From: a virus
IMG/VR virus record: IMGVR_UViG_3300020048_002392
Span: 1 to 64,000 of that record
Reading direction: 5' to 3' (one strand)
DNA length: 64,000 bases
In this document: positions 9,653-44,714 of the stretch, piece after piece
Numbering within the stretch: position 1 is the first letter of the stretch
Layout of the letters: each line of letters begins with the position of its first letter
The notes under the pieces: generated by a model
The model's input: the letters and a program-made list of their open reading frames with translations, nothing else
Told to the model about the DNA's origin: nothing
Database searches by the model: none
Translations under genes and position numbers: made by a program

Positions 9653-9709
9653 TAATTAACCGACATAGAAATAATTTCTATGTTTACACACAGAGAGGAA
9701 GGAACTAAA

Positions 9710-9958: not shown

Positions 9959-9965
9959 TTTATGA

Positions 9966-9973
9966 TATAAATA
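9966..9973 (+). promoter_or_regulatory. T4-type late promoter (TATAAATA) upstream of hsp20
   Basis: Exact TATAAATA in the intergenic region. Confidence 0.7.
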
Positions 9974-9974
9974 A

Positions 9975-10067
9975 ATCGCAGTGACGCCTTATGGGTCACT
10001 GCGATCAATCCGGTTCAATAACGGATTATTACATGTTAAAACTCGCTTTATAAGGAGAAAACAAATG
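9975..10067 (+). promoter_or_regulatory. structured hsp20 leader, ROSE-like RNA thermometer candidate
   Basis: An 11-bp perfect stem (9975-10005), a second stem (10007-10027), and CUCGCUU pairing with the SD AAGGAG around a bulged G (10042-10057). Confidence 0.55.
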
Positions 10068-27959: not shown

Positions 27960-30900
27960 ATGCCAATTCGCACTGATCTTAACGAACCACCGTATTATGA
28001 TGACTATGATATTACAAAACAGTATCATAGAATTCTATTTAGACCCGGTTACGCTCTTCAAGCAAGAGAGTTAACTCAACTTCAAACTATATTACAGAAC
28101 CAAGTTGAACAATTTGGTGATAATATTTTTAAAGAAGGTTCTATCATAAAGGGTTGTAACTTCACTGAGCTATCTTCATTAAAATATGTGAAGGTTGCAG
28201 ATACTGGATTGGACGTTACACAATATGTTGGCGGCGTTAACGAAACTACTGGCGTAGAAACATTCTATGAACTTCAAGGACAAACTACAGGTCTTCGTGC
28301 GCTAGTCATTGCTGCAGCTTTTGGTTTTGAAACTAACGATCCTGACTTAAGTACTTTCTTTATCAACTACCTCAACACAAGCTCTACGCAAGAAAAAGTT
28401 TTTGACCAAGGTGAAACGCTGGATGTTTACAGATACACTATTACTGATGACGTTACGAGTGCAGGTGTAAAGGTTACAGAATTTCCAGTTACAACAAGAT
28501 CAAACCACGTTGGTAATTCATTTGGTGTAGACTCAGCAGTTGGTATTGTGTATCAAAAGGGACACTTCCTCTTTGCAAAGCAGCAGACAGTAATTCTAAC
28601 AAAATACACAAATGTTCCTGACGGCATTTCAGTAGGTTATAGAGTTCGCGAGAGTCTTATTACCTCTCTTACAGATGCTAGCCTATATGATAATTCAATT
28701 GGAGCGCCAAACCAAAACGCACCTGGCGCAAATAGACTAAAGTTGGAACCAATACTCGTTGCGATCCCGACTACAGAAGCGAATGGTGATGAGACATTCT
28801 TTACACTCGCAAGATATGTAAACGGTGTTGCTGTTCAAACGCGCGACGTATCTCAGTATAACGTTCTTGGCGAAGAGATGGCTAGAAGAACGTTTGAAGA
28901 ATCTGGCAACTACATCGTAAAAGGTTTAAAGACAAAGATCGTAGACAGAAACGGTCTTAAAGCTTCTATCGGACCTGGCGTTGCATACGTTAAAGGTTTC
29001 AGAGTAGAAAATAAAGGTGAGATATTTGTTGATGTTGATCAGATTGGATTGACTGAAACTGTAATACAACAGAATCAGCCAGTGTCGTTTAATTACGGCG
29101 GATATGTGGATATAGCCAACAACTTTACTATAGGCACATTGCCGGTTTCAAACTATACAACTGCAGATCTAAAGAATATAGGTGGGACCACAATAGGTAC
29201 TGCGTTTGTAAGAAACTATACACCTGGTAGAGTGTACCTTTCAAACATACGTATGGGTGCAAATAATTTCTCTAGCGTAGTATCAATAGCAGGTGCAGCA
29301 GGATCCGTCCCAATAGCGCCAGTTATCAAACAGAAGAGTAATGACGTTCTTATATTTGACGCAGGCGAGACATTCATAAAATCTATTACTGATATAAGTC
29401 TTCCAGTAAGAAAAACAAGATCCCTCACCGGCATTACCGACACGATAACGCTAGTTGCATTAACTGGTGAAGATTTTACAGTTCAGCAAGATGATATACT
29501 TATCGTAGATTCTACAAATGATAATCTAGTAATAAGCAGTATTACAAAGTCAGTAGATAATACAACATTAACTATAAACTTAGTACCTGGTCAAACACCA
29601 GCTGCGACTGGCACGATATATTATAATTCAAAGATACAAATTACAGAACCGCATAATAAATTAGACAAGACGTTATATGTTAAAGCAACGTACGCGATAG
29701 GTACCACTTCGTATTGTCTCGGCTTCCCAGATGTATACCAAATAGTTTCTATAACCGATAGTGCAGGCAGCAATGTAACTAATAGTTTTAGACTTAAGCC
29801 AAATCAGCAGGACCATTTCTACGACTTATCATATATAGAATATATTCCTGGAAGACCGGTTCCTGCATCTGGTCTCATGACTATTGCGCTAAAGGCATTC
29901 AAAGTTGATACAGCAACAGGTTCTTACTTCTTTACAGCGGATAGTTACCCTAATACTATCGATCTTAGCCTAATACCTTCATATAGATCTTCTTCAGGTG
30001 TAAACTTTAATCTAAGAAACTGCATGGATTTTAGACCACACGCAGCAAATACAGTTTCATATACTTCTGCTGAAGTTTCAGGTACTGCGCCAACAGTGAG
30101 TACTGCAGTAGGAGCAGCTCCTACGTTCACAGGCTCTTTCATAGTCCCAGCTCTTAATTCTGCAGCCACCGTTGATTATGAATACTACCTAAACAGAACA
30201 GACGTTATCACTATAGACTCATATGGCAAGTTTTCTGCAACAAAAGGAAAAGCTAGCTTAAAGTCATACGCTCCTACTATCGAAGATGATAGGCTTGTAA
30301 TATCCGAAATATATGTTCCTGGGTATCCAGCGATTACTTCTGATAGAGCATCACTTGAGAATAAGCCAGAGCTTGCAGTAAAAACAAAGTCTCTTGGTAC
30401 TAAAGTGTACACTATGAAGGACATACAGAACATTGACAAAAAGATTAGTCAGTTATTCTACTATATGTCCGTTTCGTTGTTAGAAGCTACAACAGAAAAC
30501 ATGAATATCACAGATGAAAGTGGAATACCTCGCTTTAAGAATGGCATCCTCGTCGATCCATTCAACGATCTTTCTATCGCGGATGTTAAGAATAACGAAT
30601 TTAATGCAGCTATAGATTTCACAGAAAAATCTCTAACTCCGGCTGTAAAAACTATTCCATTGAACCTAAAGTACAAAGCTTCATCGAATACAACGCTGCA
30701 TCCTAGCACAACAGAAATTGATATTGCAACATTAGAAACTGTTACGAATATACCAGTCATATCACAGACTTATGCAACTAATTTTAGAAACTGCGTAAGT
30801 AACTTCTATGATTATCTAGGGTCAGGTTTCTTATTCCCTGAATACGATGGCGCGTTTGACACAGTCACAGCGCCATCGCCAAACATCGATATAGATCTAG

Positions 30901-33296
30901 TTACGCCATTCATTGAATATACAGAAGCTCTTCAAGAATTTATTCCACTTACTTCAACACAGTCTACACTCATTTCATCTCGCATAGCAGAAGTTGGAAG
31001 AACTACGAGTGGTAAGGGCAAAGGTAGAACAACATCTATTACTACACAGCAAACCGACATCATACAGGATATCACCAGATCTCTTCAAGTATCTGAAGGT
31101 AATGTAAACGAACAGAACCTCGGCGAATTTGTTACAAACTTTAACTTTAATCCTTTCATGAGATCAAGAGAAGTTAGAATCTTGATGAATGGTTTGAGAC
31201 CTGACACGCGACATTACTTCTATTTCGATCGTCAAGATGTTAATGCAAACGTTGTCCCAGGCTTGGTGCCATCATCAGACTCAGTAAGAGACATAGTAAG
31301 ATCGAGTTCTGCTAACAATTCAGTTATTACAGACAGCAATGGTAGATTGGCAGCAATCTTTACAATACCGCCTGAAACATTCTATGTAGGTGATAGAACT
31401 CTATTGATCTCTGACGTTGATAATATCAACTCAGTAGATTCAGCAGGGACTTCTGGCGGGGATATAGTCTATAGAGCGTATAACTTCTCAGTGAATAAGC
31501 AAGGACTAACTCTTACAACAAGAGAACCTGAGATTGAAGTAACTGAAACAATAACTCAAAGAACCGTTGTGAACAGACCAGTCACAGCAACTGTCAGACG
31601 AGGTCGTCGCATCGACCCTCTTGCACAGACATTCTTTATTAAGTCCGCGATGGCTCGTGATGCAGACTCTCTATACGTATCAAGAATTGACCTCTTCTTT
31701 AAGAGAAAGAGTTTGTTGAATGGTGTTACTGTTATGTTAAGAGAAGTTTTAAACGGTTATCCTGCTCCAGAGATTATGCCGTTCTCAAAAGTCCACCTTA
31801 ATCCAGCAGACGTACTAACTTCAGAAGATGGTTCGTTAGCAACTTCAGTTTTCTTTAAAGCGCCTGTGAGATTAGATGTAGAAAAAGAATACTCTGTAGT
31901 TATAATGCCGGACGCAGCAGACCCAGACTATCTAGTTTACACTGCAAAGGTAGGCCAAACGGATCTAACAACCGGTTCTCCAGTTGTAATGGACTGGGGT
32001 GATGGTGTTCTATTTACTTCTACGAACAACAGAGCATGGCAATCATATCAAGACGAAGATCTTAAGTTTACACTTTACAGAAGAAACTTTGAAAAACCAT
32101 CTGGTACATTGACTCTTACCAATGAAGACCACGAATTCCTTACAGTGTCTGCTATAACTGGCGATTTCCAGAGTGGAGAAACAGTATATGCTCTAAAGAA
32201 CCACCTAGGTGCAACCGCGAACACAGTATCATTGGTGACAGGCAATACGACTATAAGCGGCACATCGCTATCAGATACATATAACGTAAATGATTACTTG
32301 TATGTTGTGAGCGGCGCAAATGAAGACATATTCAAAGTGCTAGAGGTGTCTTCAGGTTCAATAGTTGTTGACAAACCTGCTAGATTTACCGGTTCATATG
32401 AAGGAAGACCTGCTGTAACCGGAAGGATCGTATACTATAACAACAGATCCCCTGATATGATGGTCCTAGAAAACTCTTCTGCAAGTCTTACTAAGATTTT
32501 TTCAGCTAGTGATGTAGTTAACGGATTTACATCTGGCGCTTTTGCTACTGTTGCGTCAGTTGACAATATAGAATTAAGCTATATGCAGCCAATCATACTT
32601 AAGACAAATAACAACGTCACGGACGTATCAATGACCGGCACGTTTACAGATCCTGCAGATCCTAATACAACATACACAAGAAATATTCAGTTTAATGATA
32701 AGTCAGTGTATAACGAAAAGGGTTGCGTGATATACAGTAAATCGAATGGAGTAAAACCGTTCGACTTAATTCTAACTATGACTAACAGTTCAAATGAAAC
32801 TGCGTCTCCATTTATTGACGTTGAAACTGCGACCATGTTAGCGTATCAGTATAAAGTAAGCGCAAACAACGAGAACACTTCTTCTTATGTCTCAAGAACG
32901 ATTGAACTTGCAGAAAATCTAGACGCGGAAGATTTCTTACTCTACACTACTGCATATAGACCAATTAATACAAACATTAACGTGTATGTTAAGGCACAAC
33001 ACGCATCAGACCCAACTCAGTTTGAATTAAATAATTGGATACAATTGGAACTAGTAGAAGGAAACGAAGTATATTCTTCTTCTAGTAATCTAAACGATTT
33101 TAAAGAGTTTGTTTATAAATTACCTGAGGCCGAAAAGGTAGCAGGCGTTTTAACATATAGTAATGCATCAGGTACTTATTCTGGTTATAGAAAGTTTGCT
33201 GTTAAAATAGAGTTCATCGTGAACGAAGTTAATGGCAGAATTCCAATAGGCTCTGTTCCAAGATTACTCGATTATAGGGGGATTGCATTAACATGA
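27960..33296 (+). CDS. large virion structural protein, VrlC/DUF4815-like
   Basis: PYYDDYD...ILFRPG..LQARELTQLQ, ARRTFEESGNY, RFKNGILVDPF, DPLAQTF and QDEDLKFTLY. Confidence 0.8.
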   Translation: MPIRTDLNEPPYYDDYDITKQYHRILFRPGYALQARELTQLQTILQNQVEQFGDNIFKEGSIIKGCNFTELSSLKYVKVADTGLDVTQYVGGVNETTGVETFYELQGQTTGLRALVIAAAFGFETNDPDLSTFFINYLNTSSTQEKVFDQGETLDVYRYTITDDVTSAGVKVTEFPVTTRSNHVGNSFGVDSAVGIVYQKGHFLFAKQQTVILTKYTNVPDGISVGYRVRESLITSLTDASLYDNSIGAPNQNAPGANRLKLEPILVAIPTTEANGDETFFTLARYVNGVAVQTRDVSQYNVLGEEMARRTFEESGNYIVKGLKTKIVDRNGLKASIGPGVAYVKGFRVENKGEIFVDVDQIGLTETVIQQNQPVSFNYGGYVDIANNFTIGTLPVSNYTTADLKNIGGTTIGTAFVRNYTPGRVYLSNIRMGANNFSSVVSIAGAAGSVPIAPVIKQKSNDVLIFDAGETFIKSITDISLPVRKTRSLTGITDTITLVALTGEDFTVQQDDILIVDSTNDNLVISSITKSVDNTTLTINLVPGQTPAATGTIYYNSKIQITEPHNKLDKTLYVKATYAIGTTSYCLGFPDVYQIVSITDSAGSNVTNSFRLKPNQQDHFYDLSYIEYIPGRPVPASGLMTIALKAFKVDTATGSYFFTADSYPNTIDLSLIPSYRSSSGVNFNLRNCMDFRPHAANTVSYTSAEVSGTAPTVSTAVGAAPTFTGSFIVPALNSAATVDYEYYLNRTDVITIDSYGKFSATKGKASLKSYAPTIEDDRLVISEIYVPGYPAITSDRASLENKPELAVKTKSLGTKVYTMKDIQNIDKKISQLFYYMSVSLLEATTENMNITDESGIPRFKNGILVDPFNDLSIADVKNNEFNAAIDFTEKSLTPAVKTIPLNLKYKASSNTTLHPSTTEIDIATLETVTNIPVISQTYATNFRNCVSNFYDYLGSGFLFPEYDGAFDTVTAPSPNIDIDLVTPFIEYTEALQEFIPLTSTQSTLISSRIAEVGRTTSGKGKGRTTSITTQQTDIIQDITRSLQVSEGNVNEQNLGEFVTNFNFNPFMRSREVRILMNGLRPDTRHYFYFDRQDVNANVVPGLVPSSDSVRDIVRSSSANNSVITDSNGRLAAIFTIPPETFYVGDRTLLISDVDNINSVDSAGTSGGDIVYRAYNFSVNKQGLTLTTREPEIEVTETITQRTVVNRPVTATVRRGRRIDPLAQTFFIKSAMARDADSLYVSRIDLFFKRKSLLNGVTVMLREVLNGYPAPEIMPFSKVHLNPADVLTSEDGSLATSVFFKAPVRLDVEKEYSVVIMPDAADPDYLVYTAKVGQTDLTTGSPVVMDWGDGVLFTSTNNRAWQSYQDEDLKFTLYRRNFEKPSGTLTLTNEDHEFLTVSAITGDFQSGETVYALKNHLGATANTVSLVTGNTTISGTSLSDTYNVNDYLYVVSGANEDIFKVLEVSSGSIVVDKPARFTGSYEGRPAVTGRIVYYNNRSPDMMVLENSSASLTKIFSASDVVNGFTSGAFATVASVDNIELSYMQPIILKTNNNVTDVSMTGTFTDPADPNTTYTRNIQFNDKSVYNEKGCVIYSKSNGVKPFDLILTMTNSSNETASPFIDVETATMLAYQYKVSANNENTSSYVSRTIELAENLDAEDFLLYTTAYRPINTNINVYVKAQHASDPTQFELNNWIQLELVEGNEVYSSSSNLNDFKEFVYKLPEAEKVAGVLTYSNASGTYSGYRKFAVKIEFIVNEVNGRIPIGSVPRLLDYRGIALT

Positions 33297-33478
33297 TACG
33301 CGACGAAAGAACCAAAGCTTTAATAAACCCCGATGCGGACGCACTATATAAATATAAAGCGGAACGCGAAAAGAACCGCAAAATGATTAAGATAGAGAAT
33401 GATCTAGAAAATCTTAATCGAAAAGTAGAAGCTTTATCTAAACTTTTAGAAAATAGAACAGAGAAGAATAATGGCTAA
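33293..33478 (+). CDS. small conserved hypothetical protein
   Basis: RDERTKALIN motif and a coiled-coil-like C-terminus; ATGA-coupled to the upstream gene. Confidence 0.65.
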   Translation: MIRDERTKALINPDADALYKYKAEREKNRKMIKIENDLENLNRKVEALSKLLENRTEKNNG

Positions 33479-34814
33479 GTCAATAACTGAAGTAACTGCT
33501 AGTAACACCTTCCAAGTATGGCTTGATAAAACAAACGAAATTGTTGAAATTATAAACAACGATGTGCTTACAGCATCTCCGTCTGCAAATGGTGACATTA
33601 CTATAGGTAATGCTACGTTAATTGGTAACCTAACTGCCAACAATATGATAGCAAGCGCGTTATTAAGAGCAGACACCATAAGCCCGCTAATAGGATCTAC
33701 ATCTATATTAAGCACAGCCTTATTCAATATAACTACGAGCCAAACCGTTCTTGAAAGACTTACTAGTGCAGTTGGTCCTAGAATGGCATTCACCGATGGT
33801 GCTGTTGAATGGCAAGCTGGTTTTGAAAACGCGTTAAACAAAAACTTCGTTATTACTTCCGGTGGAACTTCAGTATTTAGAATCACCCCTACTGGTGACG
33901 TAGAGATAAATGGCACTGTTACCGCCGGTTCTGTTCAAGCTGCATCTGCAACCGCAAACACGTTAACTACTGCTAGAACTATTGCTGCTACAGGAGACAT
34001 AACTTGGTCTGTATCATTTAATGGAGGAAGCAACGTTACTGCGGCCGCTACGATACCAGTAAACTCTATAAGCAATACAAAGATAAGACAATCTGCCGGC
34101 CTTTCACTAGTAGGTCGCGCAGGAAGCACTCTAGGAGATGTAGCCGACATAACATCGTCCGCCGATCATCAAGTGCTTAGAAGATCTGGCTCTACGATTG
34201 GATTTGGTGCAGTTGCATTAAACCAAGCTGCCGCAGTCACTGGAGTGTTGCCGGCAGCAAACGGCGGAACTGGTGCATCTGCGCTAACTGCAAATAAGTT
34301 GATGGTTGGAAACGGCGCCGCTGACGTATTAACACCAACCGCACTTCATTGGGATGGAGTAAATACACGACTTGGTATTAATACAGTTACTCCGACTGAA
34401 AGACTTGAAGTAAACGGAAACGTTAAAGCAACGTTCTTTATTGGTACTGCTACGTCTGCTCAGTACGCCGACCTTGCAGAAAAGTTCTTACCTGAAACTG
34501 ATTATGAAATTGGTACAGTCGTAATGATCGGTGGAAACGCTGAGATTACCGACACCAAAAATATCGCTGACGTTGCTATCGGTGTTATTTCCGGAGAGCC
34601 TGCGTTCATGATGAACGAAACTCTTGCTGGCGGACAATACGTTGCGCTAAAAGGTCGAGTTCCAGTTAAAGCAGTTGACACCGTAAGAAAAGGTGATATA
34701 CTAATACCAGGGCCAAATGGTGTCGCACAGCGCGGAATTAGAACGTCCTATAACAAATTTGGTATTGCTATAAGTGATTGGTCGGATGGATTCGTGGAGG
34801 CCGTTATATTATGA
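33471..34814 (+). CDS. tail fibre/spike protein with C-terminal autoproteolytic chaperone-like domain
   Basis: N-terminal TFQVWLDKTNE attachment-like motif, RLGINTVTPTERLEVNG, and C-terminal QYADLAE...VALKGRVPVK. Confidence 0.7.
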   Translation: MAKSITEVTASNTFQVWLDKTNEIVEIINNDVLTASPSANGDITIGNATLIGNLTANNMIASALLRADTISPLIGSTSILSTALFNITTSQTVLERLTSAVGPRMAFTDGAVEWQAGFENALNKNFVITSGGTSVFRITPTGDVEINGTVTAGSVQAASATANTLTTARTIAATGDITWSVSFNGGSNVTAAATIPVNSISNTKIRQSAGLSLVGRAGSTLGDVADITSSADHQVLRRSGSTIGFGAVALNQAAAVTGVLPAANGGTGASALTANKLMVGNGAADVLTPTALHWDGVNTRLGINTVTPTERLEVNGNVKATFFIGTATSAQYADLAEKFLPETDYEIGTVVMIGGNAEITDTKNIADVAIGVISGEPAFMMNETLAGGQYVALKGRVPVKAVDTVRKGDILIPGPNGVAQRGIRTSYNKFGIAISDWSDGFVEAVIL

Positions 34815-35287
34815 TATCCAGTGACGAGGTGTTTGCGTTTATTACGCAATCACTTCCATACGAACAAAGAATCGTTTCATATATTGATAAAAATAACTTA
34901 CAGCACCAAGTAAATAAATTCTCAGATATACCGTCACTTAATGAAATAACATTAAAGTTAGAAGGTATGGAAAAATATTCAAAAAGAATATGGGAACATT
35001 GTAAACTATTAGCAATTCAGAAAATGTTTACTGGTCCAGTATCTTGTCACCTATTCCTAGCACAGATAGGCTCTCCTTCATTTGGTAGGCACACCGATCC
35101 AGATGACGTTATAATATGGTGCACAGAAGGAATAAAAAGTTTGTATGTAGAGGATACCAAATACGATCTTAATCCAGGTTCATCTGTTTCTATACCTGCT
35201 AATACTCCACACGAAATTATTAATGAGCATAACTCAGTAATGTTAAGCTTTGGATTTGAACACTATTATATAGATAAGTTGGTATGA
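34811..35287 (+). CDS. JmjC/cupin-4 type Fe(II)/2OG hydroxylase
   Basis: SFGRHTDPDDV (HxD), G.K and IPANTPHEI (distal His); ATGA overlap with the fibre gene. Confidence 0.75.
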   Translation: MISSDEVFAFITQSLPYEQRIVSYIDKNNLQHQVNKFSDIPSLNEITLKLEGMEKYSKRIWEHCKLLAIQKMFTGPVSCHLFLAQIGSPSFGRHTDPDDVIIWCTEGIKSLYVEDTKYDLNPGSSVSIPANTPHEIINEHNSVMLSFGFEHYYIDKLV

Positions 35288-36312
35288 ATTGGACATTTTA
35301 CTTAAAAACAACAGAGACCTGTAATTTAAACTGTCTCCATTGTTTTACAAGCGGCACAAGTGGTGCTAAGATATATTGGAAGCCGGATCTTATAAAGGAT
35401 TGGCTCAAAAGATTTAGAGAAGAAAATCCAAAGGAAACTGATACTGCGCATTGCGAGTTTCATGGAGGAGAACCTTTTCTTGCTCCAGTTTCACAGATGC
35501 GAGAAGTCTGGCAGGAATGCAAAGATCTTTGGCCGAGTATGACTTGGGGTGTAACTACCAATCTAGTCTTCAAACTTACAGATGATCATATAGATTTTAT
35601 TAAGGGCCCACTTGAAAACCGATTAGGTTCTTCTTGGGACCCTAAGATACGTTTTGCAAATAAGAAACAATATAATCTTTGGCATTCAAACATTAAGAGA
35701 CTATTAAATGAAGGTGTAGTAGTTAGACTATTCATCAGTGTAACTAAAGATACTATCGATTACGAACCTATTGTATTACTGCGTTGGCTAAGAAGATTGG
35801 GTGTTCAAGAAGTTTCATTTGAAAGACTTACGAATAATGGAAGCGCTAGAAAATCGCCAGGAATATTTCCAACCAACGTTGAAATAGATGAATGGTTTCT
35901 AAAGATGCACTTGCAGTCAGAAGCTGTAGGAGCAAGAGGTTGGTTTGAAAATGACTTCTTAGAAAATGTATATGCTAAGTTTGAAAAACAGTTGAACTCG
36001 TGTGGTACTTTCTGCAGGGACTGTGAGGAGAAGCTATTCACGTTAAACCCAGACGGATCTATATCTGGGTGTCCAAATGCAGCGCCTGAATTCCAGTTCG
36101 GTCATTTAGAGGATGAAATAAAAGTTCTTCTTAAAAGTCCAAAGCGTATTATAAATATGATTGAAGAAAGAAGCAGAAACCCAAAGTGCTATACCTGCCC
36201 AGTCTTCCGTTTTTGTAACGGCGACTGTCACCAATTAGAATGGCAAGGTGACGTATGTGGTGCACCGAAGAGTTTGATGAGTCATATCGCAAAAGAAAAA
36301 GGTTTACTTTAA
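35284..36312 (+). CDS. radical SAM/SPASM domain protein
   Basis: CNLNCLHC and FHGGEP, with SPASM cysteines CRDC...GC...CYTCPVFRFCNGDC...C. Confidence 0.93.
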   Translation: MNWTFYLKTTETCNLNCLHCFTSGTSGAKIYWKPDLIKDWLKRFREENPKETDTAHCEFHGGEPFLAPVSQMREVWQECKDLWPSMTWGVTTNLVFKLTDDHIDFIKGPLENRLGSSWDPKIRFANKKQYNLWHSNIKRLLNEGVVVRLFISVTKDTIDYEPIVLLRWLRRLGVQEVSFERLTNNGSARKSPGIFPTNVEIDEWFLKMHLQSEAVGARGWFENDFLENVYAKFEKQLNSCGTFCRDCEEKLFTLNPDGSISGCPNAAPEFQFGHLEDEIKVLLKSPKRIINMIEERSRNPKCYTCPVFRFCNGDCHQLEWQGDVCGAPKSLMSHIAKEKGLL

Positions 36313-36903
36313 ATGGCAACTTTAACTAACCCGATTAATAAACAGAATATAGTAGATAGATTTGCAGACTATGTAGTCGCAACTGGAAACTCTGGCATAT
36401 CTTGGGGTACAAATAACCGCCCGCCATATTTCAATACAACATACCTAGGTTTCGAACCATTTGGTGGAACTACGGGTGGAAAAGCAATAGAATCATCTGC
36501 AGCAAATATAACAGATGCTAATGTAACAGCCGCCACGATATATAACGTACTAGTCGCTGAAACACAAAGATATAGTAACATTAGAAACTTGAGAGCTTTA
36601 GTTAATGTAACTGGCGCAGGCGGTAATACACCTATAGGCCCGGAAGTTCCTGGGGCACCAGGTATAATTTACGATGTCACTGCTAAAGCATATCTATCAA
36701 CAGCATATAGACAAGCAACCATATCTCCAGCAAATGCTGGAGTTGCAGCAGCTCAAGTTGCTAGAAGTGCTAACCTAGAATCTTTTTATAATAATTTACG
36801 AACAACATATTCTACATATGGAAATACTACCGCTACTATACAAGTGAACGTATGTCATTCTTCATGTCATACTTCTTGTCATGCAAATAGAGGTAGAAGG
36901 TAA
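36313..36903 (+). CDS. virion-like protein with C-terminal CHxxCHxxCH-RGRR tail; putative radical SAM substrate
   Basis: Thr/Ala/Asn/Gly-rich body with no Cys or His, followed by VCHSSCHTSCHANRGRR and the stop codon. Confidence 0.6.
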   Translation: MATLTNPINKQNIVDRFADYVVATGNSGISWGTNNRPPYFNTTYLGFEPFGGTTGGKAIESSAANITDANVTAATIYNVLVAETQRYSNIRNLRALVNVTGAGGNTPIGPEVPGAPGIIYDVTAKAYLSTAYRQATISPANAGVAAAQVARSANLESFYNNLRTTYSTYGNTTATIQVNVCHSSCHTSCHANRGRR

Positions 36904-36917: not shown

Positions 36918-37640
36918 ATGCAAGTTATTGAAACGATTGCACCTATAAGTCTAGATCACTTAAAGGTCTACTTTACAGATAAGGAAACTCTATTTAAAAT
37001 AAACTACGCAGATTCTGAATTAAAAGAAGATAAGTTATTCGTATATCTATCGAATCTAGAACTACCGTGTGACCTAGTGTTTTCTTCAGATGAAGAAGTT
37101 ATGGCTGCTGTAAAATCATATCTTTATTTTTCTCATATTCTATCAGTGCCTATTCTTGAAAATCTAACTATTTCCTTATTACTACAATTTAAAGGAATAG
37201 GTGAAGATAAAATATGGCCAGAAGAATTCTTAAATGAAAATTCAGTTATACTAAATAGTTGGGTACAAAAGCTAGAATCTTTAACTCTTTACAATCTTTA
37301 TACTGTTGATCTAGAAGATTTGAAAGATTATGTTAAAACATTTAAAGAAGATAATACAAATTCTACTGAAGGTATAAACTTTGTTAGTTTGTTAAAAAAT
37401 CCAAACTTTTATATGTTCTATAATAGTATAGATGAAAACAACTTAACATATTATTCTACATATTTTGAAGAGTATATGTTTAAAGGATCTAATCTTTATA
37501 GCTACTGGGCAAACGAAAATAACCCAATGTTTATGTTAACTTGGTCGATAGTTTCTGGTGAATTAAATTATAAAGAATATTTCGAGAGCATTAAGAATGA
37601 TGAGCAGGAGTTAGCTTTAAGTGTTTCACCTAGCTCATAA
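36918..37640 (+). CDS. hypothetical protein in radical SAM cluster
   Basis: 240-aa acidic ORF with SD AGGAAGGA. Confidence 0.7.
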   Translation: MQVIETIAPISLDHLKVYFTDKETLFKINYADSELKEDKLFVYLSNLELPCDLVFSSDEEVMAAVKSYLYFSHILSVPILENLTISLLLQFKGIGEDKIWPEEFLNENSVILNSWVQKLESLTLYNLYTVDLEDLKDYVKTFKEDNTNSTEGINFVSLLKNPNFYMFYNSIDENNLTYYSTYFEEYMFKGSNLYSYWANENNPMFMLTWSIVSGELNYKEYFESIKNDEQELALSVSPSS

Positions 37641-38763
37641 GTTATATCTATGCCATGAAAATACTATTGACACGAATAAAGATAGAGTAGTAATATCTCA
37701 AGAAAACGGATATTACATGCACGAAGTAATTCAGAAGATATCAAATGGTACTCTTTTTAAGTGCGCAAATAGTATCGACGATTTAATAAAGGGCAAGGAT
37801 ATATCGGAATTCTTTTCCGAACTTATTGACTTTTGTGTACAAAGGGATCGCCCTCTTTGCATATACACGGATAAGAAAACATTTGCATTCATTCAACTTG
37901 CTTGGTTCAATTTGATATTCAAAGAACCATCCTTTGAAACGTGCGAGATACTATATAACTCAAATGTATTTAAATACGATATGTTTTATAAAGGAAGGTT
38001 TTCTTCAAACCACGGTTCAAAGATAAAAATAGATTTGGCTTTGAATACTGGAACTCTTAAAAGTATATATGATAAAGTTCCTCACGCAGCAAATGCAAAG
38101 AAAAGAAGTTTCTTTGCAAGATATTCTAAATACGTAAGTGTTGAATACTTATTAGCATCGTATGTACACAACGGTTCTATGAAAAAAGAATTAAAAGAGA
38201 ATATAAGAAGACTCTTGAGAAAAGACATAGAAAAATACATATACGAATTAAAAGAAATATTCGTAATACATTTTACAACTCGGACCTTTAAAGAAAGACT
38301 AGGTTTAGAAAAAGAATACGATATTCAAAACATGCAGGACATAGTGAATGACAAATCTAAATTTGCAGAACTCTTTATGTCCAATAGACTATTCTTTGTA
38401 TCAGGGATGGATCTACCATCGAGTAAGATGAATAAAAATTTTAGATTTGAACAAATAACTGATGAAGACGTAAATAACTTTAAAGAATTCACTGTTTTAT
38501 CCGGCACAACTTGGGGAGAAGAAGCAGTCTATCAGTTTATCAAATCAGATATAAACAAATTGGACTTTATTGATATTATAAATGACGAGTTTACTGATAA
38601 GAGATTGGAAGATCTATTAAATGCAGAGTCTACGTATGAACATGCTGCCGGTTCATTCTTTTCAATAGATTTGGAAACTGTAAATAACTATCTTGTAGAA
38701 TACATATTAGACTCAAGATTTAAAAACGATAGAGAAAATCTTAGAAGCATGACTCTATGCTAA
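37621..38763 (+). CDS. hypothetical protein in radical SAM cluster
   Basis: 380-aa ORF with a GTG start after AGGAG; overlaps both neighbours. Confidence 0.7.
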   Translation: MFHLAHKLYLCHENTIDTNKDRVVISQENGYYMHEVIQKISNGTLFKCANSIDDLIKGKDISEFFSELIDFCVQRDRPLCIYTDKKTFAFIQLAWFNLIFKEPSFETCEILYNSNVFKYDMFYKGRFSSNHGSKIKIDLALNTGTLKSIYDKVPHAANAKKRSFFARYSKYVSVEYLLASYVHNGSMKKELKENIRRLLRKDIEKYIYELKEIFVIHFTTRTFKERLGLEKEYDIQNMQDIVNDKSKFAELFMSNRLFFVSGMDLPSSKMNKNFRFEQITDEDVNNFKEFTVLSGTTWGEEAVYQFIKSDINKLDFIDIINDEFTDKRLEDLLNAESTYEHAAGSFFSIDLETVNNYLVEYILDSRFKNDRENLRSMTLC

Positions 38764-39770
38764 ATGATGATATCTATAAGGCAATATCTAATAAAATAAT
38801 TCTTCATAGTGAGATAGTAGTATGCTTATTCGAGCATTGCAATATGGAATGCATATTCTGTCCGCAGAAACACGATAATATAGTAGGAGCTTCAAGAGAA
38901 GAGATACTTTCTAAAGTAGATTCTATAGTAAACTATATCAACAATAATAAACGCTCAACTCATTTTAAAATACATGCAATGGGTGGAGAACTGTTTCAAG
39001 ATCAATGGATTGAAAAAGGTTTCTTAGAAATATATTCAGATTTCATAAAAGAAATACAAAGCCGAGTAGATAAAGAAATAGAATTTAACTTTATTACGAA
39101 TTTGGTATTTGATAACACTGATTTAGTAATGCAGTTTATAGAGTCGAATAATCTTTTAATCTCTGTATCATATGACGCTAAGGGTAGATTTAGTTTATCG
39201 CAATTTGAAATATTTAAAAGAAACATAGAAATATTTAAAGACAAGATACGAATGATATCTTGCGTTGGCACAAAACAGAATATGAGAGCAATCATAAACG
39301 GTAACGAATACTTTAGTTACTTATATGACATGTTTCCGTGTGATTGGGATTCATTCCTTCCGTCCGTGCCGGTTTCTGAAAAGCTTATGCCAGCTGAAAC
39401 TGAACTATTAGAGTTCTATAAATTTTTAGTTGACAACTACCCAAGATGTATAAACATATCATACTTTACCGAAGACTCTGTTTCTAATAAAATGTCTTGC
39501 ACCAGAGGAAACAGTCACACGGTCATGCCGGATGGGTCTACTCCAAAAGGTTGTTCCGGATCAGTACTACTTACAAGCCCAACATCAAACGATCTTTTTT
39601 CTGGCGCTATAGTAGAGAAATTCATAAATACATATGATTGCTTCCAATGTGAATTCTATAAGAAGTGTCCTTTTACTTGCTTTATTAAAAATGATTACTC
39701 TAAGATAAAGCGTGATCTAGGTGAATGCGTTTTTAAGGAGACGTTTAAATATGTTAAGGAAAAAAATTAA
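38757..39770 (+). CDS. radical SAM protein with SPASM-like C-terminus
   Basis: CNMECIFC, MGGE and C-terminal C...GC...CFQCEFYKKCPFTC...C. Confidence 0.9.
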   Translation: MLNDDIYKAISNKIILHSEIVVCLFEHCNMECIFCPQKHDNIVGASREEILSKVDSIVNYINNNKRSTHFKIHAMGGELFQDQWIEKGFLEIYSDFIKEIQSRVDKEIEFNFITNLVFDNTDLVMQFIESNNLLISVSYDAKGRFSLSQFEIFKRNIEIFKDKIRMISCVGTKQNMRAIINGNEYFSYLYDMFPCDWDSFLPSVPVSEKLMPAETELLEFYKFLVDNYPRCINISYFTEDSVSNKMSCTRGNSHTVMPDGSTPKGCSGSVLLTSPTSNDLFSGAIVEKFINTYDCFQCEFYKKCPFTCFIKNDYSKIKRDLGECVFKETFKYVKEKN

Positions 39771-41442
39771 GTTTGCATTTATAAATCCACCACACGCGGA
39801 TTGGTCATTGGCAAACAACATGACGTATCTAATATGTCAGAGTTATTATAATCATTTTGGTAAATATAAAGACGACGTTGAATGGATTCCAGCGCCGTAT
39901 AAGTTTGACTTATATAAAGACATAGAAGAGATAGTAGATCTTCTTACTCCAGCGGATGTTATTATGTTTAGTTCTTATGCATGGAACTATACTATATGTG
40001 ACGACGTGGCAAAAATAATCAAAGAAAAATACCCAGAAAAGATATTACTATTAGGTGGTCCTCACATTGGAACAAACGAGCCCGATCTTTTAAGCAAAAG
40101 AACATTCTATGATTATGTATGTCAACCTACTAAACCAGGTGAGACATTTATTCAGGACGTAATAGACTGCATTATTGAAGACAGGTTATCTTCTGAAAAT
40201 ATATCTTGGGAACTAAATAGCAAACGTGGAATAAGTGCAGCATTTGATGTAGATTATTCAGTATACGAGGAACACCTAGATTACCTTACTGAAATGGTAA
40301 GTTATGCAAAAAAATATAAATTAGAACCATTCGTTGTAATAGAAACAACACGAGGATGCCCATATAAGTGTGTGTATTGTGAATGGGGTGGTGGAATTGG
40401 TACAAAAATAATAAAGAAAGATATAGAATTAGTTAAAAGAGATATCTTAGCGCTAAAGAAAGCTGGTTTCAGAGACGCGTATTTAACAGATGCAAACTTC
40501 GGCGCATTCGAAGAAAGAGATGTATCTATCTTCAAGTTTGCATGGGATCACAAGTTTAATCTAACAGATATTAGTACAATGAAATCTAAAGATCTAAATA
40601 GAAGAAAGAGATTAATCGATTCTATATCAAATATAGTTGGAAAAGGGCCAGAAAAACATTCAGTTTCTGAAGGTGGAACTGATATGTGGGGAAATACAGA
40701 ATACATATCTGTAATACCAGCAGTAAGCATTCAAAGTGTTAGCGAAGTTGCCATGAAAATTGCCGATCGTGTAGACCTAAGCTTAAAGGATAAGTTAGAA
40801 CTTTCAAAATATGTAAATCATATGTGTAGTAAAGAAGATTATCCAATACCAGCAGTAGAATTAATTCTTGGTATGCCAGGTTCAACGCTTGATGATTTTT
40901 ATACTGAAGCGAATATCCTATGGGACTTTAAAGCATGGTCAAGCTTTAGACACGACTATATGTTTCTACCAGATTCCAGATTAAACTCGAAAGAATATAA
41001 AGAAAAATACCAAATAGAAACGGTAGAAGTTTATTCTGATATCGTGGATGAAGATGGCACTGATAACTGGCACAACTTATATAAAAACAAAAGGACATAC
41101 TTTAAAACTATAAGATCGTGCTTTTCTTTTACGTCGGAAGATATGTATGAAATGTGGTTTATGAACAATGCTACAAATTACTTATTAAAAAACATTTATC
41201 CAATGTTGGAAAATTATGCGTCACCTAAAGAATTTGCCAAAGAAGCTTACAACGTAATAAATACTATAGAAGGATTTGACGATATCTATCAAGAAATCGT
41301 AGACATATTGAATCCTAATACACCTCCAAAATCCATAAGAAAATTAGGTGACAATTTTAGAGCAAAGACTATAGAAGATTTTCTTGTTAAAAACAATATA
41401 ATCCTAAAATCTGAAATAACGAAAAGGTTGTTAATAAAATAA
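39751..41442 (+). CDS. cobalamin-binding radical SAM enzyme (class B methyltransferase-like)
   Basis: N-terminal B12-binding-like region (FSSYAWN, LLGGPH), ETTRGCPYKCVYC, DANFG and ELILGMPG. The start at 39751 follows AAGGAG. Confidence 0.88.
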   Translation: MLRKKIKFAFINPPHADWSLANNMTYLICQSYYNHFGKYKDDVEWIPAPYKFDLYKDIEEIVDLLTPADVIMFSSYAWNYTICDDVAKIIKEKYPEKILLLGGPHIGTNEPDLLSKRTFYDYVCQPTKPGETFIQDVIDCIIEDRLSSENISWELNSKRGISAAFDVDYSVYEEHLDYLTEMVSYAKKYKLEPFVVIETTRGCPYKCVYCEWGGGIGTKIIKKDIELVKRDILALKKAGFRDAYLTDANFGAFEERDVSIFKFAWDHKFNLTDISTMKSKDLNRRKRLIDSISNIVGKGPEKHSVSEGGTDMWGNTEYISVIPAVSIQSVSEVAMKIADRVDLSLKDKLELSKYVNHMCSKEDYPIPAVELILGMPGSTLDDFYTEANILWDFKAWSSFRHDYMFLPDSRLNSKEYKEKYQIETVEVYSDIVDEDGTDNWHNLYKNKRTYFKTIRSCFSFTSEDMYEMWFMNNATNYLLKNIYPMLENYASPKEFAKEAYNVINTIEGFDDIYQEIVDILNPNTPPKSIRKLGDNFRAKTIEDFLVKNNIILKSEITKRLLIK

Positions 41443-41963
41443 TGATAAAAGATATTTACACAAAGGGATTTGTAAAACTAAGTGAACCGTCCGCTCTAGA
41501 CCTTATAAGGATTGACGAGTTCAGACTACTTAACGTAGAAGAAAGAGCAAGAGATAACGGTGTAAAAGACGTTAGTCCAGAATTATCAAAGAGAATGGAT
41601 GTATTTGCGCAATACTTAAAAACAAAATACATACTACCAGAATGGCCCGATGCAAAATATAATAAGTTTTTAGTTTGGGACGGAGTTGATGCTGACAACC
41701 AAGGTTGGCATACTGATATGTTTGAAAACTACGATGTCTTCTTTCTTTACTATTTCGATACTCAATACGAAGAAACAGGCGGATCTATAAATTTCAAGTG
41801 GGGATCTTTAGAAGATAAGGAAGAAACGGCTCAGTTCTACCCTCAAGCAGGAGACCTATTCATGGTAAACAATTGCAGAGGATTTTGGCATAGGGCAGAG
41901 TCAACAAAGATTACACGAAGACTAGCAAGCTTTGATTTTAGTGTAGGTTTAGAAGATGACTAA
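41442..41963 (+). CDS. 2OG-Fe(II) oxygenase
   Basis: WHTD, GGSI, P.AGD and FWHRA...RR. Confidence 0.8.
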   Translation: MIKDIYTKGFVKLSEPSALDLIRIDEFRLLNVEERARDNGVKDVSPELSKRMDVFAQYLKTKYILPEWPDAKYNKFLVWDGVDADNQGWHTDMFENYDVFFLYYFDTQYEETGGSINFKWGSLEDKEETAQFYPQAGDLFMVNNCRGFWHRAESTKITRRLASFDFSVGLEDD

Positions 41964-42255
41964 TGAAATAGAAGAGTTGCTTGCCAAGAAACAAATCATC
42001 GGAGATGAAAGGGATCTATGCGCAGAGTTATATAACGTATGGATTACCAAATTGCATGATTTTCAAAAAGACCCGGTAAAGTATAAAATGTATATGGATA
42101 TGATACAAATGATGGAACCGTATGGCGCGCAATTAAAGGAAGAGATACGCGAAATAAACAGAAGACTCTGCGAAATAGAAGGTGTCGATTCAATCGGTGA
42201 AACGGATTATGTTAGAGAATGCAACAACAAGTACGGCAAGGCCAAACCAAATTGA
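41956..42255 (+). CDS. hypothetical protein
   Basis: 99-aa helical-looking ORF overlapping both neighbours. Confidence 0.6.
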   Translation: MTNEIEELLAKKQIIGDERDLCAELYNVWITKLHDFQKDPVKYKMYMDMIQMMEPYGAQLKEEIREINRRLCEIEGVDSIGETDYVRECNNKYGKAKPN

Positions 42256-42752
42256 TAATTGAAGACTTTTTCACTAAAGGATTTGTTCACTCTAAATTTG
42301 ACATAGACGTCGTAGATATGTTTAAGAATGATCACTTTATTGACTGTAATTCTAAAGAAGCAGATGATCAGACAATCGGTGAAGAGGCACAACTAAAACT
42401 AAATGAAATACATTTGTACATTGGAAAGAGTATCGTAAAGAAAGTATTTAGTAACTTTACTTATCATAGAAATGGAATGTGGTGTGGGGTTGATACTGGA
42501 TCTGCAGAATGGCATAATGATTTTATTGATGGCGACCCTTTTACAAGCAACCTTTTAATATATCTAGAAGATGGTGAACCTTATGGTAATTCTATAGAAG
42601 TAAAGAACCAATTTGAAGAGTATAAAGTTATGCCAAAACCAAATGAATATGTTTGGCTAAATCAAAACAAAAAATTTATGCATAGAGCGACTCATAAAAG
42701 CGGCCCAAGAAGATTACTATCATTTGAATTTTATATACCAGCATTGGTTTAA
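42219..42752 (+). CDS. 2OG-Fe(II) oxygenase, paralogue of 41442
   Basis: WHND and FMHRA...RR. The true start may be the TTG at 42252, which overlaps the upstream TGA. Confidence 0.75.
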   Translation: MQQQVRQGQTKLIIEDFFTKGFVHSKFDIDVVDMFKNDHFIDCNSKEADDQTIGEEAQLKLNEIHLYIGKSIVKKVFSNFTYHRNGMWCGVDTGSAEWHNDFIDGDPFTSNLLIYLEDGEPYGNSIEVKNQFEEYKVMPKPNEYVWLNQNKKFMHRATHKSGPRRLLSFEFYIPALV

Positions 42753-42754
42753 TC

Positions 42755-43792
42755 ATGGATCTAATTATCAAACCCACTGAAGTTTGTAACTTCAAATGTA
42801 CATTCTGCTCTTCTACAAAGATATCAGAGGAACACACCTCGCAGTTAGATCTGGAGAAAGTCTTTAGATTCCTTAAGAGATATCCTGAGACAAAGACAAT
42901 CATTGTAAACGGCGGTGATCCTCTTATGATGAGTCCTGCGTACTATTGGCGAATGATTAAACACTTAGAAGAAAACAATTACCCTGCGACTATCTCTCTT
43001 ACTACAAACCTTTGGCCTTTCTATAAGAACGTCTCTAAGTGGAAGACTTTATTTCTACACCCGAGGATTGGAATCTCAACATCATTCCAATATGGAAACG
43101 GTAGACTGAAAGGAGACTACTCAGTATTTACAGAGGAAGACTTCTGGGCAGCATCTGATACAATGTTAAAAGAGATCGGCTATAGGCCAACGTTCATAGC
43201 AGTCATTACAGAAGAGAATGAAGACACTGCGTTGAAAACTGTTGAACTTGCAAAAAAGATGGACGTAGTATGTAAAGTAAACTATGCTATGGCTTCAGGT
43301 GACCAAGGAGTACCTTATCGTTTATCAAAGATATATGAGAAGTACATTGAGATCTGGAAGGCAGGTCTTGCTCCGTGGGAACACAACACACAGCAGATGA
43401 TGAAGAGACTCCGCGGTGAACAAACTATCTGCCCTCAAACTAGAACCTGCGACTCGAGTATTCGAACGATACAGCCAGAAGGAGACTATTATTCCTGCGG
43501 TGCGTTCGGCGACGATCGTGATAAAGCTATTGATTTTGAATACGAAATGAATGGCGGATTTTCAACTCCTCTTGCTGATGACTTTAACTTACTATCGTTA
43601 AAGCAAGTTTGTTTCTCGTGTCCGATGTTTGAAATATGTAACGGCTGTAGAAAGACTGTTAAGGATCTGAAAGAACATAGAATGGTAGAAGATCATTGTA
43701 AGCATATGAAGCAACTTGCGCCAGATATTATAGAATCAAACGGATTGAATTTAGAGGTAACACCATATGTCTACGAAGGGCTACACGGTTAG
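42755..43792 (+). CDS. radical SAM/SPASM domain protein
   Basis: IIKPTEVCNFKCTFC, GGDP, and CPQTRTC...SC...CFSCPMFEICNGC...HC. Confidence 0.93.
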   Translation: MDLIIKPTEVCNFKCTFCSSTKISEEHTSQLDLEKVFRFLKRYPETKTIIVNGGDPLMMSPAYYWRMIKHLEENNYPATISLTTNLWPFYKNVSKWKTLFLHPRIGISTSFQYGNGRLKGDYSVFTEEDFWAASDTMLKEIGYRPTFIAVITEENEDTALKTVELAKKMDVVCKVNYAMASGDQGVPYRLSKIYEKYIEIWKAGLAPWEHNTQQMMKRLRGEQTICPQTRTCDSSIRTIQPEGDYYSCGAFGDDRDKAIDFEYEMNGGFSTPLADDFNLLSLKQVCFSCPMFEICNGCRKTVKDLKEHRMVEDHCKHMKQLAPDIIESNGLNLEVTPYVYEGLHG

Positions 43793-44714
43793 TATTAACC
43801 CATCTTATTTTTGTAACTTTAGCTGTGATTTTTGTTATCTTACTAAATCTCAATTAGCTGATACAAAAAAGATTTCTTTAGAAAGACTAGATGAACTTCT
43901 TTCACAGGTTCCAAAGATAGAGTATGTTGATCTTTACGGTGGAGAGATCGGCGCGTTAAAGAAATCATACTTCTATGATATGAAAGACGTGATAAGAAAA
44001 CATTATCAGGATGACATAAATATAATTACAAACTATTCAATGATACACGAAGGTTTCTATGATGATGACGTTATACTTGGAGTGTCGTATGATTTTGAAG
44101 CAAGGGAAAAACACGAAATTGTTTTTAAGAATATGATGATTTCACCAGTACCAATTTCAGTTTTAATACTTGCTTCAAAAGAAGTAATTCAAAAAGATGT
44201 AGAAGAAATGATTTCTCTTCTTAATATATGTTCTGCAATAACTTCAGTAGAAATAAAACCTTATTCGATTAATCAAGCAAACGCTGATAGAGTTACACAT
44301 AGAGATTTTGAAGTGTTCGTTCAGAAATGGTTAGATGCAAAGACTGAGAAACTATTTCAATTTATAAATGAAGATAAGATAAAAGAATCTCTATCAAAAG
44401 AATACAACGCGTTCTCTGATAATCATATATACATAACGCCGAACGGCAAGTTTGCTGTTTTAGAGTTTGATAAGGATGATAAGGAATATTTTTTAGAACT
44501 TAATAGTTGGGGTGAATATATAGAATGGACGAAAAAGGAAAAAGAAAACATAAGTCCTTTCTGTAAGGAGTGTATATATTTTGGAAACTGTTTAACAGAA
44601 CATTATAGATACGTGGATAATTTAGAAAACAGTTGCAATGGATATAAAGGGTTATTGGATTTTTATAATGAAAGAATGGAAAATAAGACAAGAGATATAT
44701 CACAGACTACATAA
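43767..44714 (+). CDS. radical SAM protein with partial SPASM domain
   Basis: CNFSCDFC, LYGGEI and C-terminal CKECIYFGNC...SC. Confidence 0.88.
   Translation: MSTKGYTVSINPSYFCNFSCDFCYLTKSQLADTKKISLERLDELLSQVPKIEYVDLYGGEIGALKKSYFYDMKDVIRKHYQDDINIITNYSMIHEGFYDDDVILGVSYDFEAREKHEIVFKNMMISPVPISVLILASKEVIQKDVEEMISLLNICSAITSVEIKPYSINQANADRVTHRDFEVFVQKWLDAKTEKLFQFINEDKIKESLSKEYNAFSDNHIYITPNGKFAVLEFDKDDKEYFLELNSWGEYIEWTKKEKENISPFCKECIYFGNCLTEHYRYVDNLENSCNGYKGLLDFYNERMENKTRDISQTT

Follow-up and report, generated by a model that had tools for sequence, protein, structure and literature searches.

The locus described here raises the question of why a viral protein should end in three regularly spaced Cys-His pairs when its gene directly follows that of a radical S-adenosylmethionine (SAM) enzyme. 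The DNA analysed, called the window in the following, comprises positions 1 to 64,000 of the virus record IMGVR_UViG_3300020048_002392 of IMG/VR. It contains the gene of a protein of 196 amino acids (aa), here named CH196, behind the gene of a radical SAM enzyme with a SPASM domain, here named rSAM1. Comparative sequence analysis leads us, with moderate confidence, to a reading in which CH196 is a folded carrier protein made late, the tail of which serves as substrate of the neighbouring radical SAM enzymes, and in which the protein is probably part of the apparatus of tail or baseplate. The CH196 tail would probably be chemically remodelled by the phage itself, something that is not known to have been reported for phage particles.

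The tail of CH196 and its conservation

The translation of the CH196 open reading frame (ORF) has a C-terminus that reads TIQVNVCHSSCHTSCHANRGRR, also given as VCHSSCHTSCHANRGRR. The Cys and His residues of the protein, exactly three of each, all lie inside the final 16 residues, CHSSCHTSCHANRGRR, where they form three Cys-His pairs with a period of four residues, followed by RGRR. This arrangement had been noticed in a reading of the window made from the sequence alone (the sequence-only reading), and the translation confirms it. The clustering is not due to chance, because random placement of six residues would put all of them into the last 16 of 196 positions with p = 1.1e-7 and because none of 200,000 shuffled versions of CH196 contained the motif CH..CH..CH. 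The pattern CxxxCxxxC occurs three times in the six frames of the whole window, and only the copy in CH196 lies within a long ORF. The 81.8-kb virus record contains one copy of CH196.

The remainder of the protein had been likened to a fibre or decoration protein. As for composition, this description holds, since Thr, Ala, Asn and Gly account for 44.9% of the residues. The shape, in contrast, is not that of a fibre: the AlphaFold2 model (based on 121 sequences; predicted local distance difference test, pLDDT, 81; predicted template modelling score, pTM, 0.75) predicts a compact alpha/beta domain of residues 1–181. Its final beta-strand stops at Cys181, and the tail beyond this residue is exposed and modelled with low confidence. 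No family of Pfam or NCBIfam matched CH196 at E<=0.1, and the protein matched one PHROG of unknown function via its C-terminus only. A Foldseek search of the model against PDB gave no match at E<=0.001. In a wide VIA-align search, the top Z was only 4.9, to a designed protein, and no fold is named. The matches in BFVD were exclusively homologues without known function (a DT01-like entry, an uncultured phage, Atu_ph07 and a Myoviridae contig).

CH196 belongs to a large family. An exhaustive HMMER search recovered 246 clusters (50% identity) at E<=0.001, and 634 of 996 candidates from a collection clustered at 90% were accepted at E<=0.01; nearly all members are 175–220 aa long. The sequence-only reading had made its proposal depend on conservation of the tail in homologues. 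Among the matches listed, a C-terminus of the form CH..CH..CH..R.RR is present in 117 of the 120 near homologues and in 134 of the 150 representatives of 50%-identity clusters, and identity in the body drops to about 30% among homologues. Two of the 16 diverse homologues that do not match are N-terminal fragments, and the other 14 still carry at least two CH pairs; a one-residue insertion ahead of RxRR is found among these exceptions. Further variant tails among them consist of four C-H-x-S units followed by a Gly-rich end, of three units ending in CHGS[IL] without R-x-R-R, or of units in which the middle Cys is replaced (CHSNH.NTCH). Proteins with variant tails are P0257, P0271, P0251, P0268, P0269, P0156 and P0186.

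In the set of 134 matching homologues, C, H and R are fixed by the selection for the motif, and Ser at the third position was left free; nevertheless, Ser stands three positions behind the Cys in 125, 106 and 119 sequences for the first, second and third unit, respectively, with Asn in most of the others. The position two behind each Cys varies, and the first Cys is preceded by Val or Ile in 120 of the 134. The signature of the family is, consequently, [VI]-(C-H-x-S)3-R-x-R-R at the exact C-terminus. The unit under constraint is C-H-x-S rather than CxxxC alone, His and Ser being kept as strictly as Cys. Column by column, the most frequent residue of this alignment reaches a mean of 0.2–0.5 in the body versus approximately 0.85 in the tail. 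Cys makes up a mean of 0.2% of the body and His is scarce there; the least conserved stretch is a hypervariable loop formed by residues 41–70. Judged from this conservation, purifying selection on CH196 is concentrated in the tail.

Such a pattern could also arise from an unmodified metal site. Three Cys and three His, maybe shared across an oligomer, might bind Zn, Fe, Ni or Cu in a protein with a structural or adaptor role, and the radical SAM enzymes would then act elsewhere, for instance on fibres or on a small molecule. Cys and His are indeed both invariant and adjacent, the body is almost free of the one and poor in the other, and the gene lies in a context of baseplate and fibre genes; metal sites in phage fibres are well established, as in the His-x-His iron sites of the T4 fibre. 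However, a metal site explains neither the near-invariant Ser/Asn at the third position nor R-x-R-R, and it leaves the strict adjacency or overlap with one SPASM orthologue across unrelated phage lineages, described below, without explanation. We hold this alternative to be unlikely.

A set of 80 IMG/VR loci with a CH196 homologue was assembled, and their ORFs were labelled by means of the window's proteins. When all ORFs of at least 50 aa in 82 loci were searched for CH..CH, all 78 matches fell in the CH196 family. Since CH..CH occurs in no other ORF of the gene module in these loci, CH196 is the only candidate substrate of the repeat type.

The neighbouring SPASM enzyme

rSAM1 carries the cofactor motifs expected of its class. 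The CX3CX2C motif at residues 13–20 (C13/C17/C20) is invariant in 42 orthologues, as is CX2CX5CX3C at residues 302–315 (C302/C305/C311/C315), which together with further Cys residues gives a complete SPASM set. The SPASM domain model scored 40.2 bits and passed its cut-off of 27. As CX3CX2C is already reached at residues 13–20, rSAM1 has no N-terminal recognition domain. SPASM-type radical SAM enzymes act overwhelmingly on peptides and proteins. The top full-length matches of rSAM1 in NCBIfam are distant, namely anaerobic sulfatase-maturing enzyme (anSME; 4.3e-13), PapB, DynA and DarE, all at least 300 bits under the respective cut-offs. Among solved chains, rSAM1 comes nearest in sequence to 8vpo, anSME (4k37) and CteB (5wgg), and all of these matches are weak.

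The ATG of CH196 at 36313 abuts the TAA of rSAM1 at 36310–36312, just as the sequence-only reading had stated. The same proximity is found in the IMG/VR loci: the rSAM1 orthologue ends within 60 nucleotides (nt) of the CH196 gene in 76 of the 77 loci with at least 1.1 kb of upstream sequence. Mostly, the start of the CH196 homologue overlaps the rSAM1 stop, the commonest offset being −17 nt (33 loci). The sole separated pair lies in locus L031 (7770–9989), where a 2.2-kb insertion places three genes between rSAM1 and the CH196 homologue; two of the inserted genes are mutually paralogous and look oxygenase-like by eye.

Isolated phages were searched by tblastn. CH196 as query matched 10 of 50,697 phage records, i.e., Pseudomonas phage pPa_SNUABM_DT01 (DT01) and nine RSL2-like records from Ralstonia and Burkholderia. 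With rSAM1, 15 isolate records were found, comprising the ten of CH196 and, in addition, RSF1 (two records), Agrobacterium phage Atu_ph07 (two records) and Sinorhizobium phage Phosso. In RSF1, Atu_ph07 and Phosso, the gene after rSAM1 ends in the CH196 tail motif; these homologues were missed by BLAST with CH196 because their bodies are too diverged or enlarged (296 and 306 aa). A CH196 homologue adjoins rSAM1 in all 15 isolate records carrying the enzyme. The DT01 and RSL2 records annotate the gene order cupin, radical SAM, CH196 homologue and then further radical SAM genes. Among approximately 185,000 prokaryote genomes of GTDB, only two contain CH196 homologues; both are contigs of marine metagenome-assembled genomes with the same phage module, and both share the rSAM1-CH196 arrangement. 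Homologues without radical SAM neighbours, which the sequence-only reading had named as a sign against its proposal, are thus not what the viral loci, the isolate records or the two GTDB loci contain. In these genomes, the linkage of rSAM1 and CH196 is obligate in both directions, across T4-like marine phages, the phiKZ-related Chiangmaivirus, DT01 and the 470–490-kb Atu_ph07 group. Based on conservation of the motif and on this linkage, the earlier idea of CH196 as a candidate substrate of its SPASM neighbour fits best. A prediction of the complex of rSAM1 and CH196 gave a score of 0.02 at a mark of 0.32, which counts neither for nor against binding.

Tight linkage might also be expected if CH196 were a helper of the radical SAM enzymes, either as an Fe-S or electron donor or as a scaffold presenting the substrate, comparable to HxsD or PqqD. 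The module encodes four to six Fe-S enzymes, three Cys could ligate a cluster, and T4-like marine phages rich in radical SAM genes also hold Fe-S assembly genes according to excerpts of PMC5332604. Against a helper, other phages rich in radical SAM genes are without CH196, as seen from the few tblastn matches, and CH196 is tied to one orthologue rather than to radical SAM genes generally. Further, it matches no known Fe-S carrier family in Pfam or NCBIfam, and a loop that takes up large Gly-rich insertions would be odd for a cofactor carrier. A role as helper, therefore, seems improbable to us.

A candidate late promoter and the particle context

The 3′ end of the rSAM1 gene contains the sequence TATAAATA, which is the consensus of T4 late promoters. 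Since its count in the window is not enriched (9 versus 8.6 expected), the case for a promoter is built on position and conservation. Eight of the nine copies in the window are on the + strand, 15–163 nt ahead of an ORF start. In 72 of 79 loci, TATAAATA is found within 300 nt upstream of the CH196 homologue, and the background on the + strand is 0.12 per kb. In most loci, the octamer codes for [LIV]-I-N-[SN]; sites with this translation are spelled TATAAATA in 50 of 53 cases, versus 2.3 expected from the codon usage of the genes themselves. Other lineages have TATAAATA elsewhere in the last 220 nt of rSAM1, for instance in Y-K-Y-C codons or 40–67 nt before the stop. Based on these results, TATAAATA in rSAM1 is under selection at the nucleotide level and is partly convergent. 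Its conservation implies a late transcript that is predicted to start just before CH196. Because only 14 nt part CH196 from the next gene, p240, this transcript presumably runs on into the downstream genes.

The gene neighbourhood gives hints of a role in the particle. In four unrelated groups, the T4-like, RSL2-like, DT01 and Atu_ph07-like phages, the module comes after baseplate and fibre genes, and it always has genes of the tail or baseplate beside it. In the window, it is preceded by a gene with a DUF4815 domain and a gene for a fibre-like protein of 447 aa, the latter present in 59 of 73 loci, and genes for a T4-type baseplate hub and wedge lie further upstream of the DUF4815 gene. In the 470–490-kb genomes of Atu_ph07 (L083) and Phosso (L084), the module follows a gene of at least 13 kb annotated as ‘virion structural protein’ and a homologue of the 447-aa protein. 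Since this homologue precedes the module in both, the fibre-like gene travels with the module across distant phage groups.

The CH196 forms of Atu_ph07 and Phosso are about 100 aa longer than usual, and the hypervariable loop accepts large insertions. In the homologue P0277, a Gly_rich_2 domain is inserted after residue 40, and in P0163 such a domain is fused N-terminally; in both cases it matches a PHROG of the tail category. In the loci L069–L072 (approx. 9001–10369), a homologue with a Gly-rich insertion is spread over two reading frames, with ORFs of 308 and 140 aa; a frameshift, a split gene or a sequencing error could account for this. For Atu_ph07, excerpts of PMC6102473 report 131 virion proteins detected by mass spectrometry, most of them encoded in three clusters, one of which is ‘CDS 170–215’. 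The CH196 homologue is gp170, the first coding sequence of this cluster; the numbering agrees, as gp215 is the major head protein. Gene context, late promoter and Gly-rich forms are hints that CH196 may be a component of the virion, where it would probably belong to the tail or baseplate.

The same context bears on the idea that CH196 is a precursor with a long leader, the modified tail of which (approx. 16 residues) would be cleaved from the rest and set free as a peptide with bioactivity or the ability to chelate metal. A C-terminal core encoded beside a SPASM enzyme is the classic layout of RiPPs (peptides made by the ribosome and modified after translation), and a B12 methylase and oxygenases, as in this module, are typical of natural-product clusters. 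However, scans with Pfam, PHROG, NCBIfam and PADLOC recognised no protease, exporter or immunity gene in the module, the setting is a late structural operon of a lytic phage, and the supposed leader is a conserved domain, folded and 180 aa long, that contains a hypervariable site for insertions and would be wasted. Release of a peptide is, in our view, very improbable.

Proposed maturation, known systems and the gene module

Our proposal, then, is that CH196 is a protein-sized precursor consisting of a folded carrier of about 180 aa, which would serve recognition and later function, and a disordered invariant core, (Cys-His-x-Ser)3-Arg-x-Arg-Arg. Made late from the conserved T4-type promoter within the rSAM1 gene, it would present the core as dedicated substrate to the translationally coupled rSAM1 encoded just upstream and probably also to the radical SAM enzymes rSAM2–4, the cupin and the 2-oxoglutarate (2OG) oxygenases of the module, in some phages also to a B12-binding radical SAM enzyme. 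Since each C-H-x-S unit is self-contained, chemistry within the units is favoured. The most likely products would be cross-links within a unit: a Cys thioether to a nearby residue, as in ranthipeptides and QhpC, and/or a carbon bond from His to the C-beta of Ser, as in three-residue cyclophanes on His-x-X motifs. Alternatively, Cys might be oxidised to formylglycine, as by anSME, or residues might be hydroxylated; His or Arg of the tail could be targets of such a reaction by the cupin and the 2OG oxygenases. Matured CH196 would stay whole and act with or within the tail or baseplate apparatus for host recognition.

Several points weigh against this proposal. The modification itself is something we infer, as the whole case is built on comparative genomics, and invariant Cys-His pairs would be seen in a plain metal site as well. 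As rSAM1 stays below the cut-off of every curated family, only its SPASM domain points to a class of substrate. With four to six radical SAM enzymes in the module and a single recognised substrate of three units, there may be further substrates, such as fibres or a small molecule. CH196 is not singled out by the promoter, from which the enzyme genes downstream would be transcribed too. In RSF1, it is a neighbour that is annotated as ‘virion structural protein’, and the CH196 homologue itself is annotated as ‘hypothetical protein’. Finally, the IMG/VR loci were partly retrieved via the tail pattern and are consequently biased for conservation of the tail, though not for neighbours; the 246 clusters and the count of 134 in 150 are free of this bias.

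Comparison with known systems shows resemblance without membership. A SPASM enzyme gene beside a core with regularly spaced Cys is also found for ranthipeptides and SCIFF peptides (CteB, PapB) and for the ‘Cys-every-fifth’ peptides of CefB; rSAM1 shares with the SCIFF and ranthipeptide maturases the CX3CX2C motif and a domain for auxiliary clusters of the SPASM type, and both PapB and CefB are distant full-length matches to it. In contrast to these systems, rSAM1 is without an N-terminal recognition domain, the precursor is folded and comprises 175–300 aa, and His and Ser are as invariant as Cys. The link to SCIFF and ranthipeptides drawn in the sequence-only reading was not borne out at family level, as CH196 has no NCBIfam match and rSAM1 reaches 23–49 bits versus cut-offs of 340–425. 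Membership was rejected with 23.2 versus 425 bits for the SCIFF maturase and 46.9 versus 340 for PapB; the score for CefB, 25.2 versus 600, is likewise far too low.

The top NCBIfam match of rSAM1, over its full length, is to anSME, which is also represented among the weak PDB matches. anSME has SPASM architecture and a similar size, lacks a recognition domain as well, and acts on a Cys of a whole protein; the sulfatase motif is C-x-P/A-x-R (also C/S-x-P/A-x-R). The last CH196 unit, C-H-x-S-R, has the Cys-to-Arg spacing of this motif, and CHANR of the window fits it by spacing only. Unlike in sulfatases, Arg follows only one of the three units. Assignment to the anSME/sulfatase system was rejected: rSAM1 scores 49.1 bits versus 349.45, CH196 contains no sulfatase domain, and position 3 is Ala in 2 of 134 homologues and never Pro. 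A further precedent is QhpD, which cross-links Cys residues within the small protein QhpC, and QhpC stays in a functional complex; QhpD is a distant full-length match of rSAM1 (26.1 bits versus a cut-off of 453).

Excerpts of PMC11499958 describe His-x-X motifs as known substrates for C-C cross-linking by radical SAM enzymes, with HaaB and HtkB as cyclophane maturases. Membership in the cyclophane (triceptide) families was likewise rejected, with 29.7 versus 445 bits for rSAM1 against YhhB, 23.8 versus 370 against FxsB and 21 versus 425 against AmcB, and 22.6 versus 310 for rSAM4 against GrrM/OscB.

By analogy, the closest functional precedent for CH196 would be HXS, a bacterial antiphage defence system. 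According to PMC13128918, it comprises HxsA, a folded protein of 214 aa with five HxS repeats, which is matured by the radical SAM enzymes HxsB and HxsC together with the small partner HxsD; a change of +8 Da is found on an SHRSS unit, and mature HxsA binds DNA in the periplasm. Both systems have a folded protein of about 200 aa instead of a short peptide, several basic-rich His-x-Ser units (three H-x-S/N in CH196) and paired radical SAM genes nearby. In contrast to the bacterial defence system, the CH196 module belongs to phages, each unit contains an invariant Cys and stands at the exact C-terminus, and the genes for four to six radical SAM enzymes are accompanied by oxygenase genes. With the NCBIfam models, no sequence relationship between the CH196 module and HXS was detected. 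Membership was rejected with 34.2 of 370 bits for rSAM1 versus HxsB and with 16.4 and 29 of 267.9 bits for rSAM2 and rSAM3, respectively, versus HxsC; CH196 has no match there. Only tentatively do we suggest that the matured tail might form a polycyclic cationic tip that binds metal or nucleic acid, carried by a tail or baseplate protein of the particle and used for host recognition or genome delivery; it could be what phages have as a counterpart to the HXS effector of bacteria, which blocks the entry of DNA. A reading of the tail as a heme c-type CX3CH site was dropped by reasoning only, as it needs periplasmic attachment machinery and as the middle Cys would be shared by two sites.

A radical SAM/SPASM enzyme with an adjacent Cys-rich core is known already. 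Radical SAM cassettes in the tail-fibre or host-recognition region of marine T4-like phages and soil jumbo phages have been known for years but are annotated, and no more than that, in passages of PMC7029224, PMC8066314, PMC11898562 and PMC5332604; the first of these mentions ‘radical SAM cassettes’ within the host recognition cluster that pelagimyophages carry. A literature search, which did not cover supplementary tables, found no description of the CH196 family or of the function of the module. Not found in print were the (C-H-x-S)3-RxRR motif, its folded carrier, its origin in phages, its place in a late tail/baseplate operon that has a promoter of its own, and its spread over marine and soil phages. 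With CH196, the radical SAM cassettes gain a concrete and testable candidate substrate, a small protein with an invariant tail. The family occurs in hundreds of environmental phage lineages and in cultured phage-host pairs (Ralstonia, Burkholderia, Agrobacterium, Sinorhizobium, Pseudomonas), and because such pairs exist, the proposal is directly testable. If it is true, RiPP-type chemistry would be installed by enzymes on a phage protein, SPASM enzymes would have a new substrate motif, and adsorption or DNA delivery might have a new determinant. Should the polycyclic tip be real, a RiPP-style pathway would, for the first time, be devoted to maturing a component of a phage virion.

The features of the locus are compiled in Table 1. 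All genes of the module are on the + strand, in the order cupin, rSAM1, CH196, p240, p380, rSAM2, B12-binding radical SAM enzyme, two 2OG oxygenase-like genes, rSAM3, rSAM4, p144 and 2OG oxygenase.

Table 1. Features of the CH196 locus in the window; counts of module members refer to loci with enough flanking sequence.
Feature	Position	Strand	Basis
1778-aa DUF4815 protein and 447-aa fibre-like protein, upstream structural context	27960..34814	+	Pfam DUF4815 2e-50; PHROG tail-fibre families (447 aa)
Small cupin, possible Fe(II) oxygenase	34811..35287	+	Pfam Cupin_2 6e-10; JmjC_2 exactly at cut-off; 74/76 loci
rSAM1, radical SAM/SPASM enzyme, proposed maturase	35284..36312	+	CX3CX2C and SPASM cysteines; SPASM domain score
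TATAAATA, T4-type late-promoter consensus	36150..36157	+	Inside rSAM1 3′ end, 163 nt ahead of the CH196 ATG
CH196 gene, 196-aa tail protein	36313..36903	+	ATG start, 196 codons and TAA; ORF and translation
Proposed modification site, core tail CHSSCHTSCHANRGRR = (C-H-x-S/N)3 + R-x-R-R	36853..36900	+	Per-position counts in homologues
p240, conserved acidic protein, always directly downstream of CH196	36918..37640	+	phrog_20767; 71/71 loci; AlphaFold2 pLDDT 86.6
p380, conserved protein	37621..38763	+	51/55 loci; without Pfam, PHROG or NCBIfam match
rSAM2, second radical SAM enzyme, phrog_1802 paralogue	38757..39770	+	55/55 loci
B12-binding radical SAM enzyme, KedN5-like, optional	39721..41442	+	NCBIfam 1.2e-23, under cut-off; 25/55 loci
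Two 2OG-Fe(II) oxygenase-like genes (41442–41963, 42219–42752)	41442..42752	+	Pfam 2OG-FeII_Oxy_3, under cut-off
rSAM3 (42755–43792) and rSAM4 (43767–44714)	42755..44714	+	phrog_1802, Pfam Radical_SAM; 53/55 and 55/55 loci
p144 and 2OG-FeII_Oxy_5 oxygenase (45038–45562), module end	44638..45562	+	p144 in 51/55 loci

With megablast, the module matched nothing in the phage collection, and PADLOC returned only weak viperin-like matches for radical SAM enzymes and none for CH196. Like CH196, the p240 model found no Foldseek match at E<=0.001, and its top Z in VIA-align was 4.1, covering the first 55 residues only; ESM Atlas contained no usable match for either protein. This lack of structural matches does not show that the folds of CH196 and p240 are new. 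p240 and p380 could be partners of those radical SAM enzymes that are without a recognition domain. rSAM2–4 share one PHROG, phrog_1802, and are, like rSAM1, without placement in a curated family.

In the cupin, H94, D96 and H134 (an H-x-D...H triad) and K109 are invariant. Such a triad with a Lys is found in Fe(II)/2OG hydroxylases, and there is a weak match (E 0.006) to the His hydroxylase MINA53. The cupin is, as a lead, a possible candidate hydroxylase of His or Arg in the CH196 tail, of the ribosomal-oxygenase type. A 2OG oxygenase of some kind is encoded in 53 of 55 loci, and the B12-binding radical SAM enzyme, where found, is usually accompanied by an oxygenase of the type encoded at 41442.

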